From the UHGV virus genome UHGV-0061407: DNA of 30,325 nucleotides; one strand, given 5' to 3'. The notes beneath the pieces are model-generated. The model saw only the letters and a program-made list of their open reading frames with translations. It was not told where the DNA came from and ran no database searches. This stretch comes from a virus. Every line of letters starts with the position of its first letter. Position 1 is the first letter of the stretch. Of this stretch, positions 8,064 through 14,332 are shown piece by piece. Position numbers and translations under genes: made by a program.

Positions 8064-8404
8064 TGCGCCTCCTGCTGCTCATCGGCTATTTCTTTCAGCT
8101 TTGGCTGTCTGACGTATTGAGAGAGGATGGCGAGCACCACCAGGGCCGGGCTAATCATTGCCACAATGTTTGCAGGCAGAATATCTTTGATATCCGGCGG
8201 CAGCATCGCCCAGGCATGAAGAGCTGCGTCCGGAAATGATTGGGCCCATACACCGACCAAAGCGCCGGCAGCACCCAGGCGGACAGACCATGTTTTAAGC
8301 AGCAACCGGGCATGACCAACAAACTCCAGCCGGGTATATTTGCGCACTAGCAACAGAACCAGCACGGCCACCAGCGCCAGCAGAGCGAAAATAATCATCT
8401 TCAT
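8060..8404 (-). CDS. Lysis-cassette membrane protein (two TM segments; holin/antiholin-like or accessory)
   Basis: 114 aa between endolysin and spanins; two hydrophobic helices; start overlaps endolysin stop. Confidence 0.5.
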   Translation of the reverse strand: MKMIIFALLALVAVLVLLLVRKYTRLEFVGHARLLLKTWSVRLGAAGALVGVWAQSFPDAALHAWAMLPPDIKDILPANIVAMISPALVVLAILSQYVRQPKLKEIADEQQEAQ

Positions 8405-8943
8405 AGGCTCACCCGCTCTTTAACCCAGCCGTATAGAAACGCTTCGTTAGCCGGCCTCGCTTCGGCCAACTCAAGATAGCGAGCCCCCTGGCTGCAATTC
8501 AGCGCCTTTAGCAGCGTGGCTTCGCCATCTTTGCCACGAACGGCGAGATAACTTTTCAGGGCGGCGATGGTGAGATTGCCGATCGCGCCGTCCGTCTTCA
8601 GATCCGGATATAGCTTGCCCTGCATATTCAACGCCGTTAACCAGCGCTGCAGGAATGTACTGGCGACACGTGGCCCCATGTTCACGCCAGTATCACACAA
8701 TTCCTGTGCAATGGCTGGCGACAACTCGGCGATGCAGTCAAACTTCGGTTCTGTCCAGTATTGCGACAGATAAATTGCTTTGGCTGTATCCCGTGGTAAC
8801 GCCTTCATATCGCCGCTATAGCCATATGCGCGGGCGGTAGTCTGCGTGATACCCCAGCGCGTTGGGCCGCCTTTATCATTCGGGTTATTTACGTAACCCC
8901 CTTCTTTACCGAGGATGCCCTCGATAATCTGATCTGCTGTCAT
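8401..8943 (-). CDS. Endolysin, glycoside hydrolase family 108-like with C-terminal peptidoglycan-binding region
   Basis: 180 aa; N-terminal motif EGGYVNNPNDKGGPTRWGIT characteristic of GH108 phage lysozymes; flanked by holin and spanins. Confidence 0.85.
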   Translation of the reverse strand: MTADQIIEGILGKEGGYVNNPNDKGGPTRWGITQTTARAYGYSGDMKALPRDTAKAIYLSQYWTEPKFDCIAELSPAIAQELCDTGVNMGPRVASTFLQRWLTALNMQGKLYPDLKTDGAIGNLTIAALKSYLAVRGKDGEATLLKALNCSQGARYLELAEARPANEAFLYGWVKERVSL

Positions 8944-9251
8944 GGCTCCTTAACTCCGGTAATGCGCTCCCAGAAATAGGTCAAAGCAACAGAACCCATT
9001 GCCCCGCTAATTCCGGAAGTGGCCAGTATCATGTAAATGCTCAATCCGCTTTCAATGCTCACCAGGCCAGCAATAACGCCGGTAAACCCTGAAACCACCA
9101 TTTGGGCAAGAGCATTGATCAAGCTCCATGTTGCCTTGCTCTGCTTCACATCTATCAGGTAGCGGACAAGTCCACCCCAGCAAGCAATGATCAGCAGAAC
9201 CAGCCAGGACATCCCGGCAATGCTCTCTTTGTCTTGCATACGTTTAGCCAT
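8940..9251 (-). CDS. Holin (putative, 3 TM segments)
   Basis: 103 aa hydrophobic protein immediately upstream of endolysin with 4-nt overlap; GGAGG RBS upstream of ATG. Confidence 0.6.
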   Translation of the reverse strand: MAKRMQDKESIAGMSWLVLLIIACWGGLVRYLIDVKQSKATWSLINALAQMVVSGFTGVIAGLVSIESGLSIYMILATSGISGAMGSVALTYFWERITGVKEP

Positions 9252-9365: not shown

Positions 9366-9389
9366 AAAAAAGCCATGCAAATGCATGGC
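9366..9389 (-). terminator. Intrinsic terminator (minus strand): gccatgca-aa-tgcatggc followed by U-run
   Basis: Perfect 8-bp stem 9372-9379/9382-9389; plus-strand A-run 9366-9371 gives a T-run on the minus strand. Confidence 0.45.
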
Positions 9390-9493
9390 CTTGTGATTTG
9401 AATCCGTTATTTACAAAATGTATTCGAGACAGTATCTTTCGACTTCCGGACAAAAAAACATATACCGGGACAAAATCTAAATGTAACTGCCTT

Positions 9494-9554
9494 GCCTGCA
9501 TGAAACCATGCGGGCTTTTTTTTTGCCCAAAGAAAAAGCCCACCGAAGTGGGCC
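9494..9554. terminator. Back-to-back terminator hairpins (plus-strand hairpin + T9; minus-strand hairpin ggcccac-uucg-gugggc + U5)
   Basis: Plus: stem 9494-9502/9507-9515 (one G-U), loop aaac, T-run 9516-9524. Minus: stem 9538-9543/9548-9553 with UUCG-type loop, followed by T-run (complement of 9531-9537). Confidence 0.5.
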
Positions 9555-9927
9555 TTACAGCTATCATCATTTTTTATTAGGTGTGGTGCCGGGTGCCTCC
9601 CGGTAAGTCGCCGCCAGTCCACAGACGACTCGCAATGCGCAAAAAAACATATCAGACTGGCAATGCCCCTCCGCATAGGGGGATTCACCACACGGATAAT
9701 TTAGGATGTAGTCATAGGCGGCGTCAATAACTGACACTCTGTCAAAGGCACCATTACGATGCCTTTTGCACAGTGCTAATCACTGGCTCTAATAAGGGGC
9801 CAGAGCAAAGCGATTACCCCGGCTACCAGCACTCCATCAGCCAGGATTGACATCATTTTGCTGGTGAAGTCGATAGCAACCACCAGAAACAAAAGCACCC
9901 CAGCTGCGGCCCAGCGAAGTTTACCGA

Positions 9928-10353
9928 TCACAGGTACTGGTCTAGTGGAAGTTGCAGAGCCTGGGCAATTTTCTTCAGCTGTTTCTCTTCTTCTTCCCCG
10001 ATGCCGTCGTTATCAGCTACATCAAGACACAGGCAAAGAACATCGACAGCGTCATCCGTCCCGGCAACATCAGCCAGTTCGCGCAGCGCCTGAGCGTTGG
10101 CTGAACGCGGTGATGCTTCATAGCGAGCGCGAATATTCGAACTCATCTGGGCAATTTCACCAGCAAATGGCGCGAATGCCGGGAGGGCCGAAATAGTCTT
10201 CTCCAGCACTGCAATCTCTTTTGCATCGCAGGTACCATCGGCGTATGCAATCGAGTACGCTCCCCAGACCGTGGCTTCTACGGCATCGCGGTTTTCCATT
10301 TTTTTCACTTCAACAACGGCTTTACGGGCTTTCTTTTTAAAAATACCAAACAT
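9928..10353 (-). CDS. TerB-like (tellurite-resistance TerB family) protein
   Basis: 141 aa; two repeats of the TerB-like pattern (AYADGTCDAKEIAVL and LDVADNDGIGEEEEKQLKKIAQAL) matching what I recall of TerB (a.aDG...eE...l..ia..l). Confidence 0.6.
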   Translation of the reverse strand: MFGIFKKKARKAVVEVKKMENRDAVEATVWGAYSIAYADGTCDAKEIAVLEKTISALPAFAPFAGEIAQMSSNIRARYEASPRSANAQALRELADVAGTDDAVDVLCLCLDVADNDGIGEEEEKQLKKIAQALQLPLDQYL

Positions 10354-10485
10354 AGTGACTTTCCTTTTAGCGGGTGAGCCAGCGCTCAGGAATGATCAGC
10401 CCACAGAGACAGTCACACTGACTATTCCCTATGGCTCACCCCTGAAAGGCTCTGTGGTTAAATAACGCCGAGCGTGGCGCAGATA

Positions 10486-10510
10486 CGAAAAAGGCCCGCG
10501 TATGCGAGCC
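10486..10510 (-). terminator. Terminator-like hairpin downstream of the methyltransferase gene
   Basis: 7-bp stem with one mismatch (10493-10499/10504-10510) followed on the minus strand by a T-run (complement of 10486-10491). Confidence 0.3.
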
Positions 10511-10796
10511 TGGTGGATCCGCTTACTGATACGGAGCGACCAACCTAAGTTGTCGTAGATTCAAATTGTGGCCCTGCTTTTAAGTCACTTTGCGGTCAGC
10601 TGGGACATGTAAGTTACGCATTGTGATCGGGATTCGCTTCAGACGCTGGCCCCGCAGCCATATAAGTGCCGGTTACGGTTCCGGCCAGGTCTCTTCCTCA
10701 ACAGGTTATTCTCCATACGGATTACCGTTTGTTGGTCGTTCCAGCGATCTCAATTTTCCGGTTACGTTTATCCGGCGGCTTACGCCCGGTTAAGCC

Positions 10797-11876
10797 CTAA
10801 GGTAAGGGATTTGGTTGTGGTGGCCGGTGCTCCAGCAAATTACGCATTTCACTGACCGTCTGTTCAAATCTCTCGGTTTCCAGTTCGACACCTAGCCCCC
10901 TTCGCCCGAGAAGAGCAGCCTGCTTGAGCGTTGAGCCTGATCCAAAAAAGAAATCAGCTACAACATCACCCGGGCGGCTACTCGCTGTGATTATCTGCTC
11001 CAGCATATCCGCAGGCTTTTCACATGGGTGTTTACCTGGATAAAACTGAACAGGCTTATGAGTCCAGACGTCGGTATATGGCACCGTGACTGATACGCTG
11101 AATGGTCGCCGTAAACGGTAATATTCCTGCTGGAGTTCAGAATATTTTCGGCTTAACGATTGCCAGGTGGCGACAAGCTGGTGGTGAGGTTTTCCCAGTT
11201 CGTTGCGCGAGTGCTTATCCATGGCGATTTTTTGAAACAAAGCCTGCAACTTTAAATAATCGGCTTCGTTCGGTAGCTGCCACTGACTAAGGCCAAACCA
11301 GTGGGAAACCATATTTTTCTTACCTGTGGCTTCTGCAATCTGAGCCGACGTCACGCCAAGAGATTCCCGTGCATCACGGAAGTAAGAAATTAAAGGCGTC
11401 ATGACGTGTTGCTTTAACTCATTACACTTTGCGGCATATCCATCGTCTTTGGGCCTGTATGGCCCCTGATAATGGTCGGCAAAAATGATACGCTCAGTGG
11501 CAGGGAAATAAGCGCGTAAGCTCTCCTTATTGCAGCCGTTCCATCGCCCTGATGGCTTAGCCCAGATGATATGGTTGAGCAGGTTAAACCGCTCTCTCAC
11601 CAACAGCTCAATATCCGCTGCCAGGCGGTGCCCACAGAACAGATACATGCTGCCGGCAGGTTTTAACACTCGCCAGAACTGTGCCAGACAGCTATCCAGC
11701 CAACGTAAATAGTCTTCGTCCCCCTTCCATTGGTTATCCCAGCCGTTTGGCTTCACCTTAAAATAAGGCGGATCGGTAACAATAAGATCAATGGAGTTAT
11801 CGGGTAGCGATGGGAGGTATTGCAGGCAATCAGCATTGATTAAATCAATACTGGATATTTTTACAGTATTTTTCAT
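10797..11876 (-). CDS. Orphan DNA methyltransferase, beta-class amino-MTase (N6-adenine or N4-cytosine)
   Basis: 359 aa; motif IV DPPY (LIVTDPPYF) near N-terminus and AdoMet motif I (DFFFGSGST) near C-terminus, the order typical of beta-class MTases; no adjacent restriction endonuclease ORF. Confidence 0.85.
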   Translation of the reverse strand: MKNTVKISSIDLINADCLQYLPSLPDNSIDLIVTDPPYFKVKPNGWDNQWKGDEDYLRWLDSCLAQFWRVLKPAGSMYLFCGHRLAADIELLVRERFNLLNHIIWAKPSGRWNGCNKESLRAYFPATERIIFADHYQGPYRPKDDGYAAKCNELKQHVMTPLISYFRDARESLGVTSAQIAEATGKKNMVSHWFGLSQWQLPNEADYLKLQALFQKIAMDKHSRNELGKPHHQLVATWQSLSRKYSELQQEYYRLRRPFSVSVTVPYTDVWTHKPVQFYPGKHPCEKPADMLEQIITASSRPGDVVADFFFGSGSTLKQAALLGRRGLGVELETERFEQTVSEMRNLLEHRPPQPNPLP

Positions 11877-12025
11877 AGATCAGTAAGCGTAACTCTGATA
11901 GGCTCACTTTGCTTTTGCGCTAAAGCAGTGGGCCGTGGTTAGCTTGTGACCTGAAAGCATGAGCTGATGGCTGGCCGGGTGCTACAACACCCACCAGCCG
12001 CCCATTTTCACAGCAAAAGCCCCCA

Positions 12026-12217
12026 TTACTGGAGGCGCTTATAACATCCGAACTGATAATCAGATAACCCCGCCATTACCAGCTGCGTAAGTATGAACTG
12101 GCAGCGTTCGCGGCTCAGGTGAGTATTCTGAGCAATCTCCCAAGCCGTAGCCGGTTTGTTACTTAACTCATCAAAAACAGCCTTGGCTGTTTCCGTCATA
12201 TCTTGCTGATTTAGCAT
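12026..12217 (-). CDS. Hypothetical small protein (possible winged-helix)
   Basis: 63 aa from internal ATG with GAGG RBS (track ORF 12026..12277 begins upstream of this); first gene after the tR'-like terminator. Confidence 0.4.
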   Translation of the reverse strand: MLNQQDMTETAKAVFDELSNKPATAWEIAQNTHLSRERCQFILTQLVMAGLSDYQFGCYKRLQ

Positions 12218-12320
12218 GTCTTTTACCTCAAATAAGTTGCGTGACATACAGATAACTCTGGTGACGGTATCCAGCAAGAAGTAATTGAAAGAGAAGAAGA
12301 TTTTATCGATTTTAGCCCAT

Positions 12321-12345
12321 AAAAAAACCCGCTCGCTGGCGGGTT
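12321..12345 (-). terminator. tR'-like intrinsic terminator immediately downstream of the Q-dependent promoter
   Basis: Minus-strand hairpin cccgc-cagcga-gcggg (extended by A-U pairs) followed by U7 (plus-strand A7 at 12321-12327). Confidence 0.55.
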
Positions 12346-12370
12346 AATCAACGTTGAACATACAAAGCCC

Positions 12371-12411
12371 ATCGTTATAAATAAAATTACACAAAAGCGG
12401 CAACTTTGCAA
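12371..12411 (-). promoter_or_regulatory. pR'-like late promoter with sigma-dependent pause element (qut-like region)
   Basis: Minus strand: -35 TTGCAA (12406-12411), 16-nt spacer, -10 TAATTT (12384-12389), then AACGATGGG (12368-12376), which matches the pause-inducing AACGATGGG motif I recall from lambda pR'; located within 60 nt of the Q stop codon. Confidence 0.5.
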
Positions 12412-12427
12412 GTAACGTGTCGCTAAA

Positions 12428-13276
12428 TTATGCGATATTTATCAAATCAGACACCTTTGTCACACGTTTAAGCTGTGAGTCGGTATAACTCTCTTCCTCA
12501 AAGCATTTTGTAACCAGACTTTCATAGAAAGGTTTCCAGCTATATCGCCAGGTACGTTCTGGCAGACCAGGCAGCTCAGAGAGCATGCCCCTGTATGCAT
12601 TCGAAGACTTAGGACGACTGTAACCGCGGCCTTCACAACGTTTACATATTTTGTAGACAGGCACTCCCTGCAGCTCTGACTCTTTACGGTCCAGGGTTTT
12701 TCCCGTACCGCCACACTGACATCGCTTGCTGATTTTCCCGGTGCCGCCGCATTTGAAGCAGAGAACATGGTCAACCTCTTCCACCTGACGTTTTACTTCA
12801 AAATCCGAAGGTGACTGCCTGAGGTCTTTTGCCCATTGCGGTAATCTCATTGTGTAGTGGCTTTTTTCCACCATTGAGGTTTTTTTTATGAAGCCTGAAC
12901 CAGAACACTTCCGGCAATCTACGCTGTCAGCTGCAGACGAGGCATAGTCGTTATAAGCGAACCGAGCTATTATCAGCATACACAGCGGGAACTTCTTCCC
13001 TGCTGCTTTTCTTATCGAACGAGGCGCTTTTGATTTTGCATATTCAGCCAACCAACTGACGGATGCCTTTCTGTCATGTTCGCTGATTCCAGCTTTACCC
13101 AAAAACATTGACAGGCCTATTCCTGCCTCTGCCTGTGTCATCCCCAGAGCCGCCATTACATCTGTCACAGTAAGTTGCTCGCTGGCGGTTGCACGACCGC
13201 TATCGGAAATATGCATTCCTTTGGGCGCGAAAAATTTGGGAATTGATTCAATATTCATGCTCAGTACTCCATACAC
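12428..13276 (-). CDS. Q: Late-gene antiterminator Q (lambda-Q family)
   Basis: 282 aa; segments read as clearly related to lambda Q as I recall it: GRATASEQLTVTDVMAALGM; ARFAYNDYASSAA; zinc-finger-like CRKCSGSG and CKRCEGRGYSRP; C-terminal PERTWRYSWKPFYESLVTKCFEEES. Confidence 0.85.
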   Translation of the reverse strand: MYGVLSMNIESIPKFFAPKGMHISDSGRATASEQLTVTDVMAALGMTQAEAGIGLSMFLGKAGISEHDRKASVSWLAEYAKSKAPRSIRKAAGKKFPLCMLIIARFAYNDYASSAADSVDCRKCSGSGFIKKTSMVEKSHYTMRLPQWAKDLRQSPSDFEVKRQVEEVDHVLCFKCGGTGKISKRCQCGGTGKTLDRKESELQGVPVYKICKRCEGRGYSRPKSSNAYRGMLSELPGLPERTWRYSWKPFYESLVTKCFEEESYTDSQLKRVTKVSDLINIA

Positions 13277-14332
13277 TCAAGCTTTTACAATGACACCGAT
13301 ACCCATTACCCGGTCCAGAAAACGAGCCCACAGCTCTAACTGAGTGCCATATTTCTTTTCGAACTCTGATGTATTGGCGTGTAATTCATCGTGATGCACT
13401 CTGCACAGTGGTATCACGAAGAGATCATGGGCCTTGGTGCCAGTTCCCCCCAGACCATTCCCTATTATATGGTGTGGATCGTCTGATGGTTGCCTACAGC
13501 ATTCACATGGCTGAGTTTTAACCCAACGTGTGTAAACTTCGCAGGTCCAGCGCCGGCGCTTTGGGCGGCGCATAAATGATTCGGGGCTGTTCGAATCGAC
13601 ACCAAGCCTCAGAATGGGTTTACTTTCAATCTGAGGTTGCTCAATGAGTAAACTGGCGTCCGTCAGGTCTATGCCCTCGACAAGATCCTGAAGGATTTCA
13701 CCTGCAGCAAATGACGGGACAATATCGCTATCCTTATAAACGGACAGGAAAGGTTCCTCAGGCAGTCTTAAGGCCTGTTGCGCCATCGTCTCGGTTATTG
13801 CGTCAGCAATGCCGGATTTCACAGCCCACCAGCAGAGCTCCGCCATCGATAATTCGCGCTCCTTATTGTATCCAAGGCTGATCAACACCCTTTCAATCAC
13901 CCACTGAACCAGATTCTGATAAGCCAGCTCTGACAACATTTCGGTGGTCTGCTCACGTAATTCATTATCACAATGCCAGCAGACAACCATGGCGCCAGGC
14001 GGATGCCGCATAGTCACTAATTCATGGTGGTGATAGTGGGAATGCGGGTACTGGCACTCTCTGACATGTCGTAGAAGCCAGGCCTCAAGAGCGTTAATTC
14101 CACCAGCTGCGTTAATAACCCTCTTATCCCTCATGAAAAAACGCAGAATGTCCATTTCTGCAAGGGGCTGACGTGCATCGGCGATCCGCCCAGTGGGCAG
14201 TGTTTTCATCTTCTCTGGCTGACGCTCTATCAGGACACGGCCGCCGGTAAAGAGAGACATCAATTCGCGGCCTGGTTTGAAAAGAACAACGCCCAGGCGC
14301 GGCACAATTTCCGGAGTAAGCAATGCTCGCAC
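13277..14332 (-). CDS. DUF968-like prophage protein with C-terminal His/Cys-rich motif
   Basis: 351 aa; C-terminal HHIIGNGLGGTGTKAHDLFVIPLCRVHHDELH; size and position (adjacent to Q) resemble the YdfU-type DUF968 proteins of lambdoid prophages; family assignment from memory. Confidence 0.5.
   Translation of the reverse strand: MRALLTPEIVPRLGVVLFKPGRELMSLFTGGRVLIERQPEKMKTLPTGRIADARQPLAEMDILRFFMRDKRVINAAGGINALEAWLLRHVRECQYPHSHYHHHELVTMRHPPGAMVVCWHCDNELREQTTEMLSELAYQNLVQWVIERVLISLGYNKERELSMAELCWWAVKSGIADAITETMAQQALRLPEEPFLSVYKDSDIVPSFAAGEILQDLVEGIDLTDASLLIEQPQIESKPILRLGVDSNSPESFMRRPKRRRWTCEVYTRWVKTQPCECCRQPSDDPHHIIGNGLGGTGTKAHDLFVIPLCRVHHDELHANTSEFEKKYGTQLELWARFLDRVMGIGVIVKA

Follow-up and report, generated by a model that had tools for sequence, protein, structure and literature searches.

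An M.EcoGII-family methyltransferase gene with a covarying RNA leader in the late cargo slot of a lambdoid Klebsiella prophage

The late switch and the slot downstream of Q

The virus genome UHGV-0061407 (30,325 nt, referred to here as the window) is a lambdoid Klebsiella prophage, and our subject is the segment in which the late antiterminator gene Q is separated from the lysis cassette by a set of cargo genes, among them an orphan DNA methyltransferase (methylase) gene that follows a structured RNA leader. Every gene relevant to the locus lies on the minus strand. From Q to the holin, the order is a small winged-helix open reading frame (ORF), a β-class methyltransferase gene, a TerB-like gene (TciA) and a DUF3927 gene (TciB). 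All of the features that an earlier note on this DNA had listed between Q and the lysis cassette are present on this strand, and the cassette begins at 9251, where the note had placed it, with a LydA-type holin. The features that carry the argument are as follows.

12428-13276, minus strand: late antiterminator Q, 282 aa, with DnaJ-like CXXCXGXG zinc-finger motifs (PF03589, E=1.5e-45; PHROG 127)
12368-12411, minus strand: pR'-like late promoter, which aligns with lambda pR'
12319-12345, minus strand: tR'-like intrinsic terminator (hairpin 12345-12326, a 7-bp GC-rich stem followed by T7)
12026-12217, minus strand: small winged-helix protein, 63 aa, equivalent to SfV orf47 (ATG at 12217)
12013-12036, minus strand: intrinsic terminator after the winged-helix ORF (hairpin 12036-12019), conserved in enterobacterial relatives
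11885-12012, minus strand: structured RNA leader of the methylase gene, ~128 nt, ending 8 nt before the ATG, with helices P1-P4 and the P4a/P5 alternatives involving GAGCCUA
10797-11876, minus strand: orphan β-class N6-adenine DNA methyltransferase of the M.EcoGII family, 359 aa (PF01555, E=1.8e-40)
8401-9251, minus strand: start of the lysis cassette, with the LydA-type holin at 8940-9251 and a GH108 endolysin at 8401-8943 (PF16083, PF05838, PF09374)

The Q protein matches PHROG 127, 'anti-termination protein Q-like', with E=1e-95. In a base-for-base alignment of the adjoining DNA with lambda pR', we find a −35 element TTGCAA (12411-12406), a −10 element TAATTT (12389-12384; TAAATT in relatives, as in lambda) and a pause-inducing AACGATGGG at 12376-12368 that is identical to that of lambda. 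This pause sequence is the promoter-proximal σ70 pause element (−10-like AACGAT) that lies just 3' of Q. Conservation extends over the first 105 nt beyond the Q stop codon in 67 distinct relatives, with Q proteins 48-100% identical in amino acid sequence; directly after the tR' hairpin and its T-run, the sequences of these relatives diverge completely. The pR'-like promoter and tR'-like terminator that the earlier note had placed after Q are therefore upheld by the alignment to lambda, by the hairpin with its T7 and by their retention next to Q in relatives. From this arrangement, the pR' transcript in the lysogen is predicted to be ~60 nt long, ending at tR'.

The late leaders of lambda and the Stx phages, with their short pR' transcripts 6S RNA and StxS (PMC7547250), share with the window a Q gene, a promoter with the AACGATGGG pause element and an intrinsic terminator. 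The window differs in having neither toxin genes nor tRNAs, in its predicted pR' transcript of ~60 nt as against ~194 nt in lambda, and in its Q, which is a larger PF03589 protein with zinc-finger motifs. Despite the length of this Q (282 aa) and its DnaJ-type CXXCXGXG repeats, which match PF00684 below threshold (28 bits), the promoter-proximal region is still nearly identical to lambda pR'. ARAGORN detected no tRNA gene in the window, and we rejected tRNAs or degenerate tRNAs of the kind found in Stx phages as the content of the intergenic gaps.

Terminator-like hairpins are enriched in a promoter/terminator scan (14 found, against 4.9 ± 2.3 expected), and five intergenic terminators on the coding strand lie between Q and the holin, at 12345-12326, 12036-12019, 10511-10492, 9556-9535 and 9392-9369. 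The earlier note had described the cargo genes as separated by non-coding gaps with terminator-like hairpins of their own. The hairpins are there, but the gaps are not empty: one holds a match to the STnc100 small RNA (sRNA) family (9525-9722), and another holds the structured leader of the methylase gene (11885-12012).

To place these genes in context, we collected 88 loci encoding relatives of the window Q (1.26 Mb) and mapped the features of the window on them. Slot statistics refer to the 79 of these loci that have both a related Q and a recognizable lysis start, with the ORFs downstream of Q clustered. The distance from the Q stop codon to the first lysis gene ranges from 247 to 5137 nt (median 1060), and the 79 loci display 45 distinct cargo architectures. 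The methylase module is present in 26, the TerB module in 16 and both in 10, while 12 have no ORF of at least 60 aa. Comparison with related prophages, which had been proposed as a check on the reading of the locus as a cargo slot, thus reveals a variable slot, and the genes of the window do not form a conserved core among loci with a related Q.

The slot is also the one that stx occupies, as the earlier note had suggested. In the Stx2a phage Stx2_EH1910, the order is Q, a 65-aa ORF, a DNA methylase, three tRNAs, stx2A, stx2B and the holin, such that a homologue of the small ORF of the window and a methylase 77% identical to that of the window lie between Q and stx2. The comparative paper on the Stx pR' region does not mention the methylase. 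In SfV and Citrobacter phage phiNP, Q is followed by a terminator, the small ORF, the methylase, a second terminator and the holin. The TerB-like/DUF3927 pair, annotated tciA/tciB, directly follows another Q in Klebsiella phage 1 LV-2017 and E. coli phage JLK-2012. Phage ST974-OXA48phi18.2 has the holin and STnc100 stretch of the window, but a tRNA and other ORFs after its Q. Klebsiella phage Kp4866-6 matches window positions 9665-13300 at 97.8%, whereas all other phage records match only pieces of the region.

Across the 88 mapped loci, the small ORF, the 150-nt gap that follows it and the methylase gene travel as one unit, the TerB-like and DUF3927 genes always travel together, and either unit can directly follow tR'. 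Other occupants of the slot include an NMT1-like periplasmic binding protein, an HNH-AP2 homing endonuclease and a DUF2513 protein. Late-operon slots that carry an orphan methylase as cargo are already familiar, and their general biology is textbook lambdoid biology. We also observed a 359-aa RelA/SpoT-domain protein resembling small alarmone synthetases and a SocA/Panacea antitoxin-domain protein with an uncharacterized neighboring ORF as slot occupants in loci L043 (233-1312 nt after the Q stop codon), L037 and L065; these look like toxin-antitoxin or defense cargo.

The methylase and its RNA leader

The methylase has the motif order of the β class, with VTDPPYF at about residues 32-38 near the N-terminus and FFFGSGST at about residues 309-316 near the C-terminus, and its PF01555 match spans residues 29-340 with a ~90-aa insertion. 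No restriction-enzyme gene adjoins it, its neighbors being the winged-helix ORF and TciA. The enzyme is accordingly an orphan β-class methyltransferase, as it had been called from the outset. For comparison, we used the M.EcoGII sequence from Supplementary Table S1 of PMC11551740 and the Anc291 sequence from the same paper. The window methylase is identical to M.EcoGII at 264 of 349 residues (76%) over the full length with 2 gaps, and the target-recognition region is conserved between the two. With Anc291, a reconstructed ancestral enzyme whose methylation of DNA and RNA has been measured (PMC11551740), the identity rises to 83%. A search of the PDB returned no solved structure for the family, only distant β-class enzymes (E ~1e-24).

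According to PMC5778455, M.EcoGII is prophage-encoded and methylates adenine in any context, M.EcoGII and M.EcoGI are both silent in the lysogen and deleterious when expressed, and the authors proposed that M.EcoGII is switched on as the prophage excises. Activity of M.EcoGII on RNA is described in that paper and in PMC11551740. M.EcoGII and M.EcoGI derive from prophages of E. coli O104:H4 C227-11 (PMC5778455) and share with the window enzyme its β-class motif order, length class, prophage location and orphan status, in addition to the 76% identity that includes the target-recognition region. The window enzyme differs in its Klebsiella host and its 24% divergence. Neither a flanking winged-helix gene nor a structured leader is mentioned in the published descriptions consulted (PMC5778455, PMC11551740).

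By homology, the window methylase most likely methylates adenine without sequence specificity and would provide broad protection against restriction. Two points weigh against this assignment: the enzyme diverges from M.EcoGII at 24% of its residues, and homologues carry the annotation 'dam' in some records. Expression late and only upon induction would be consistent with the silence of M.EcoGII and M.EcoGI in the lysogen (PMC5778455). A comparison of the methylomes of lysogen and cured strain, which the earlier note had proposed for assigning the methylase target, would probably show nothing informative, since enzymes of this family are not expressed in lysogens and recognize no sequence motif.

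The 150-nt gap ahead of the methylase gene is 85-99% identical among relatives in which the methylase protein itself is merely 71-83% identical. Its motifs are recognizable in phiKO2, whose methylase is 59% identical, as well as in Vibrio phages ST2-1pr and vB_VpaM_MAR and Aeromonas phage PhAER-2, and the differences among them look compensatory by eye (for example, UGGGC...GCCCA versus GUGGC...GCCAC). A scan of IMG/VR with a degenerate pattern gave 121 matches. Motif-like matches with enough downstream sequence lead into a methylase gene, usually 23 nt past the end of the pattern (one copy is truncated), whereas none of the ~15 chance matches, which do not resemble the motif, is associated with a methylase.

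We built a covariance model, R1, from 12 enterobacterial sequences and a hand-drawn four-helix structure. In the window, R1 gives a single hit, at 11885-12012 on the minus strand, with 155 bits; the opposite strand scores at most 15 bits. Of 100 methylase homologues retrieved with the enzymes of the Vibrio and Aeromonas phages, 62 have an R1 hit upstream, as do most of 47 further loci. The leader is always on the coding strand, and the distance from its end to the methylase start is ~10 nt, or ~145 nt where a small ORF separates the two. Among the 88 Q-anchored loci, it occurs in all 30 that carry the methylase and in none of the 58 that do not.

In an alignment of 79 distinct leaders, 90.8% of cells are paired, as compared with 33-46% when the partners are slid, and compensatory changes occur at 26 of 29 pairs. 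The covariation score reaches 0.435, as compared with 0.05-0.10 for the slid controls, although these figures are somewhat inflated because the alignment was fitted to the model. An independent RNAalifold prediction from that alignment also contains P1, P2 and P4, with compensation at 18 of 20 pairs. When RNAalifold was given a MAFFT-only alignment, it recovered P1 alone because the arms of the hairpins were misaligned; a structure-aware alignment from the covariance model is needed. The frequent G-U pairs and the strand asymmetry indicate that the functional form is the sense RNA.

The leader has no match among the 4227 models of Rfam 15, either in the window (E≤5) or in 8 diverse instances (E≤1). 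Weak hits to the Leu and Trp leaders and to MicC elsewhere in the region fall well below their gathering scores and overlap terminators, leaving no known RNA family as a candidate for the leader. Our literature search found no description of an RNA motif upstream of phage methyltransferases. The leader is therefore a strongly supported and apparently uncatalogued RNA structure dedicated to methylases of the M.EcoGII type.

Three further observations concern the DNA around the leader. A GATC (Dam) site lies directly upstream of the methylase start codon (CUGAUCUAUG; window 11877-11890, minus strand) and is conserved in the enterobacterial and several other clades. In five loci with methylase homologues that R1 misses (L299, L301, L304, L306 and L309), the winged-helix gene stands ahead of another conserved leader, TGATGGGGCAATG...CTTAAGCGGTGA..., which includes a GGCTGG...CCAGCC hairpin and lies ~130 nt upstream of the methylase homologue (at 2501); it may be a diverged variant of the R1 motif. 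The Vibrio phage loci L095 (2160-2227), L271, L274 and L280 share another conserved block of non-coding sequence, GATGCCTTGAGTACCTGAGACCC...GGAGAGGAAGC, ~100-150 nt upstream of the methylase, with or without the R1 motif.

Upstream of the leader, the earlier note had the locus end at 12277, the TTG from which the ORF finder opens an 83-aa reading frame. The gene is present, but its start is most likely the ATG at 12217. This codon has a GAGG Shine-Dalgarno sequence and the 237 homologues of the ORF are mostly 63-73 aa long, so the real product is probably 63 aa. Source records name the homologues 'TrmB family' or 'DprA-like winged helix', in keeping with weak Pfam hits to TrmB and DprA_WH, and the protein falls in PHROG 331, of the function-unknown category. 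The stop codon of this ORF (TAA, 12028-12026) lies in the loop of the terminator that follows, the 5' arm of which is coding sequence, and this arrangement is kept in the enterobacterial relatives. With the stop codon in the loop and the 5' arm in coding sequence, a ribosome finishing the winged-helix ORF could melt the terminator, in an attenuation-like coupling.

The TciA/TciB and STnc100 modules

The remaining features of the locus are the following.

13277-14332, minus strand: DUF968/HNH NinG-like gene, preceding Q
10512-10796, minus strand: intergenic spacer 3' of the methylase gene, the site of a ~650-bp insert in close relatives
10354-10511, minus strand: terminator (10511-10492) and conserved structured 5' leader of the TciA gene, with Shine-Dalgarno sequence AAGGA and stems CCACAGAG/CTCTGTGG and GGGGTGAGCC/GGCTCACCC
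9928-10353, minus strand: TerB-like (TciA-like) protein, 141 aa (partial PF05099 match; PHROG 632, E=4e-64)
9776-9931, minus strand: small hydrophobic membrane protein, DUF3927/TciB-like, 51 aa (PF13064, E=9e-14), overlapping the TciA stop codon
9525-9727, minus strand: STnc100-family sRNA gene with promoter-like site and terminator (Rfam RF02076)
9369-9392, minus strand: last intrinsic terminator ahead of the lysis cassette (hairpin scan)

Both the TerB-like protein and the small hydrophobic ORF of the earlier description are present at these positions. The Pfam match of the TerB-like protein is partial (PF05099, 30 bits against a cut-off of 24.4), placing residues 15-57 on profile positions 64-106 of 118; over its full length, the protein matches PHROG 632, 'tellurite resistance', in the moron category. 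Its partner matches PHROG 1470, 'TciB-like inhibition of cell division or resistance to colicin'. The pair corresponds to the TciA/TciB moron pair of lambdoid phages (PHROGs 632 and 1470; tciA/tciB in JLK-2012), sharing with it the two-gene organization, the structured leader and the position downstream of Q, but the window TciA matches only part of the TerB domain. PADLOC gave no hit that would make TerB/TciB a known anti-phage defense system, and a search of the accessible literature found no experimental work on TciA/TciB or DUF3927.

The terminator and the TciA leader together make up the final ~160 nt of the 444-nt gap that separates the methylase and TerB-like genes; the leader moves with the TerB-like gene and matches 187 phage records. 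The same leader stands ahead of tciA in JLK-2012 and ahead of ant inside the lysis cassette of an Stx2a-type phage (L348:2485-2661, L347:2480-2653). Its two nested stems are kept by means of compensatory changes, and it may be a second portable cis-regulatory RNA. In the same gap, several near-identical relatives (L013-L015, L017, L019 and L023) have a ~650-bp insertion that encodes an HNH_3 + AP2 homing endonuclease and a 56-aa ORF. The insertion, which the window does not have, lies ~1900-2550 nt after the Q stop codon, equivalent to window ~10512-10560.

The STnc100 gene lies ~270 nt upstream of the holin, in a stretch earlier taken as a non-coding gap. Its match to RF02076 (9525-9722) scores 99.8 bits against a gathering score of 47 and covers model positions 1-206 of 206. 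The scan placed a promoter-like site, TTGACG-18-TAAATT, at 9727-9698 and a terminator at 9556-9535; the sRNA has this promoter-like site of its own and is probably independent of Q. According to a recent preprint (bioRxiv 10.64898/2026.05.13.724894), STnc100 is related to the PasD sRNAs, and the related Pas sRNAs adjoin the holin-lysozyme operon of Stx-type prophages. The window resembles these systems in having a full-length Rfam match in the late region of a prophage, between Q and the holin, and differs from them in its host, which is Klebsiella rather than E. coli or Salmonella. The stretch around the last terminator (9369-9392) moves with the holin and is 99% identical in phage ST974-OXA48phi18.2.

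Expression of the cargo and the role of the leader

We consider it likely that the locus is the late-operon leader of a lambdoid Klebsiella prophage, in which a moron slot between Q/pR'-tR' and the lysis cassette carries three independently mobile modules as late, Q-driven cargo, one of them with an RNA-gated methylase. Module A comprises the winged-helix protein, its terminator, the ~128-nt RNA leader and the M.EcoGII-family methyltransferase, module B the terminator, structured leader, TciA (TerB-like) and TciB (DUF3927), and module C the STnc100-family sRNA, which has a promoter-like site and a terminator to itself. Transcripts from pR' would end at tR' in the lysogen, and the four further terminators would insulate the cargo. 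After induction, Q-modified RNA polymerase would read through all five terminators, and the methyltransferase would modify adenines of the replicating phage DNA, with little or no specificity, ahead of packaging. Such methylation would shield the progeny DNA from the restriction systems of the next host. Because the enzyme would be toxic, the RNA leader may act as a second gate on its synthesis, with GAGCCU pairing either with the foot of P1 (P4a) or with AGGYU by the start codon (P5), which is the layout of a translational switch. The comparisons establish the anatomy, the homologies and the modularity of the cargo, as well as the existence of the RNA structure and its exclusive link to the methylase; Q-dependence, non-specific methylation, a benefit against restriction and the switching itself are inferences.

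Several points weigh against parts of this model. The consensus promoter scan did not flag pR', the hexamers of which fall below the scan threshold, and we infer the Q-dependence of the cargo from the anatomy of the locus and its homology to lambda and the Stx phages. The proposed functions of TciA and TciB are at the level of annotation, with no match to a defense system. It is conceivable, although improbable, that the cargo genes are instead classical morons expressed from their own promoters in the lysogen, where they would bring about lysogenic conversion, for example through site-specific, Dam-like regulatory methylation and TerB-type stress resistance. The promoter-like site and terminator of STnc100 fit such a scheme, as do the PHROGs category of TciA and TciB ('moron, auxiliary metabolic gene and host takeover') and the name 'dam' given to the methylase in some records. 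However, the consensus promoter scan found no promoter-like site ahead of the methylase or TciA genes, each of which has a terminator ahead of it instead. Of the characterized enzymes, the closest are M.EcoGI and M.EcoGII, which are toxic and are not expressed in the lysogen (PMC5778455), and the target-recognition region that the window methylase shares with M.EcoGII likewise speaks against this reading.

The pairing potential of the leader bears on how it might act. Beyond P4 lies an invariant GAGCCU, for which AGGC at the foot of P1 offers an upstream pairing partner; the resulting helix, P4a, is 96.8% paired, and its pair 114-161 varies (GC in 39, GU in 21, AU in 15 and UG in 3). The same GAGCCU can pair downstream, as P5, with a purine-rich, Shine-Dalgarno-like AGGYU located 12-17 nt before the AUG. 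Mean complementarity for P5 is 4.1 against 3.0 in shuffles, and compensating arms occur (AGCCU/AGGCU, AGCUU/AGGUU, GCUUAU/AUAAGC and AGUUU/GAACU). The methylase start in the window has no Shine-Dalgarno sequence within 15 nt. In Vibrio and Aeromonas phages, a zinc ribbon of the Mu Com type (PF10122, 26-34 bits against a cut-off of 22.9) is encoded between the leader and the methylase; in the window, we found no Com gene, there being no Cys-rich small ORF within 11877-12025. Com is the classic mRNA-binding translational activator of the toxic mom gene in phage Mu, and its relatives in the Vibrio and Aeromonas phages tie the leader family to a known paradigm of translational activation. The resemblance to com-mom extends to the layout of the locus: in both, a structured leader precedes the start region of a DNA-modification gene that is late and has a toxic product. 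The window differs from Mu in that it has no Com gene, its enzyme is a methyltransferase rather than Mom, and its leader is a much larger, multi-helix RNA without an Rfam match, for which a function like that of the translation-inhibition structure of mom is conceivable.

Together with the lack of a Shine-Dalgarno sequence at the methylase start, these pairings suggest that the leader probably gates translation of the methylase. We tentatively propose that it represents an undescribed family of cis-regulatory RNAs that act as a conformational switch, either a riboswitch or a protein-responsive element, in which the P1-P4 core sets the partner of GAGCCU (the foot of P1 or the ribosome-binding region) and thereby, in temperate phages from at least three orders of gammaproteobacteria, gates the translation of non-specific m6A methyltransferases. 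Some of the evidence does not favor a switch of this kind. The 3' arm of P5 is degenerate in the clade of the window itself (AGC/GCU or AGC/GUU only), and with only 2 nt shared between them, P1 and P4a could either alternate as a switch or stack as a coexisting pseudoknot. P3 is the weakest helix and is not recovered by RNAalifold. About one-third of the more distant methylase homologues have no leader detectable by R1. A pseudoknot between the P3 loop (GGUCA) and UGAUC 5' of the AUG recurs in several clades but is not better than in shuffles (5.25 versus 4.73) and was rejected. A leader peptide starting at the conserved AUGGGCG was likewise rejected, neither its length nor its sequence being conserved.

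What the gate would respond to can be ranked: a gate of unspecified trigger is the most likely, followed by a protein-responsive element (autogenous, or involving the winged-helix protein or Com) and then by a metabolite riboswitch. An mRNA operator bound by the methyltransferase itself, in autogenous repression, or by the co-transcribed winged-helix protein or Com, is doubtful but carries some weight. The strict co-occurrence of leader and methylase accords with it, 52 of 79 distinct instances, the phiKO2 group among them, have the winged-helix gene upstream of the leader, and the textbook role of Com in Mu offers a model for the Vibrio and Aeromonas phages in which a Com-type gene is adjacent. 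Neither partner is universal, and the winged-helix protein is excluded as an obligatory RNA partner by its absence from 27 of the 79. As for the methylase itself, we know of no precedent for autoregulation at the RNA level by a DNA methyltransferase, although M.EcoGII does bind and methylate RNA (PMC5778455; PMC11551740). With the winged-helix protein and Com each absent from many instances, the methylase gene is the one constant partner of the leader, and its product depends on S-adenosylmethionine (SAM). This would suit a true riboswitch with P1-P4 as the aptamer, in which a ligand, most plausibly SAM, S-adenosylhomocysteine (SAH) or another nucleotide-derived metabolite, sets methylase translation through GAGCCU as the anti-Shine-Dalgarno sequence. 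The multi-helix junction, the highly conserved unpaired nucleotides, the pseudoknot-like P4a and the AGGC / GCCU / AGGYU layout of three elements, typical of expression platforms, would all be in character. Even so, the leader resembles no riboswitch class in Rfam 15, and a distribution limited to phages and one gene family is unusual for metabolite riboswitches; we regard this version as rather unlikely.

It is highly improbable that the conserved 150 nt are not a structured RNA but a DNA-level element, such as a linker for module recombination, a promoter or operator of the winged-helix gene, or a leader-peptide gene. The sequence does lie at a module junction, its 5' end TGTGAAAAT resembles an extended −10 element, and its conserved AUG/GUG (AUGGGCG) opens a 7-codon mini-ORF in the window. 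But the mini-ORF reads MGGWWVL in the window and MGAAA in phiKO2, and compensatory changes keep four helices intact, many of whose G-U pairs would read as A-C on the opposite strand. P1 covaries (UGGGC/GCCCA versus GUGGC/GCCAC) even though it includes bases that a promoter at TGTGAAAAT would leave untranscribed, and the leader stays with the methylase in loci where the upstream winged-helix gene has been replaced (L025 and L114). Covariation thus largely refutes a DNA-level explanation.

The slot itself adds a Klebsiella example, together with a quantified picture of slot plasticity, to a locus type already known. What is new here is the assignment of its enzyme to the M.EcoGII family, as a probable broad anti-restriction device, which is relevant to the spread of prophages among clinical Klebsiella. 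Silence in the lysogen explains why the methylomes of lysogens miss such enzymes. Also new is the strongly covarying and widely distributed RNA structure dedicated to this methylase family. M.EcoGII is a widely used reagent for footprinting of chromatin and RNA, and one whose toxicity makes it harder to express. For an enzyme of this type, a natural RNA gate, if true, would be of interest both to biologists working on riboswitches and riboregulators and to the developers of such tools.

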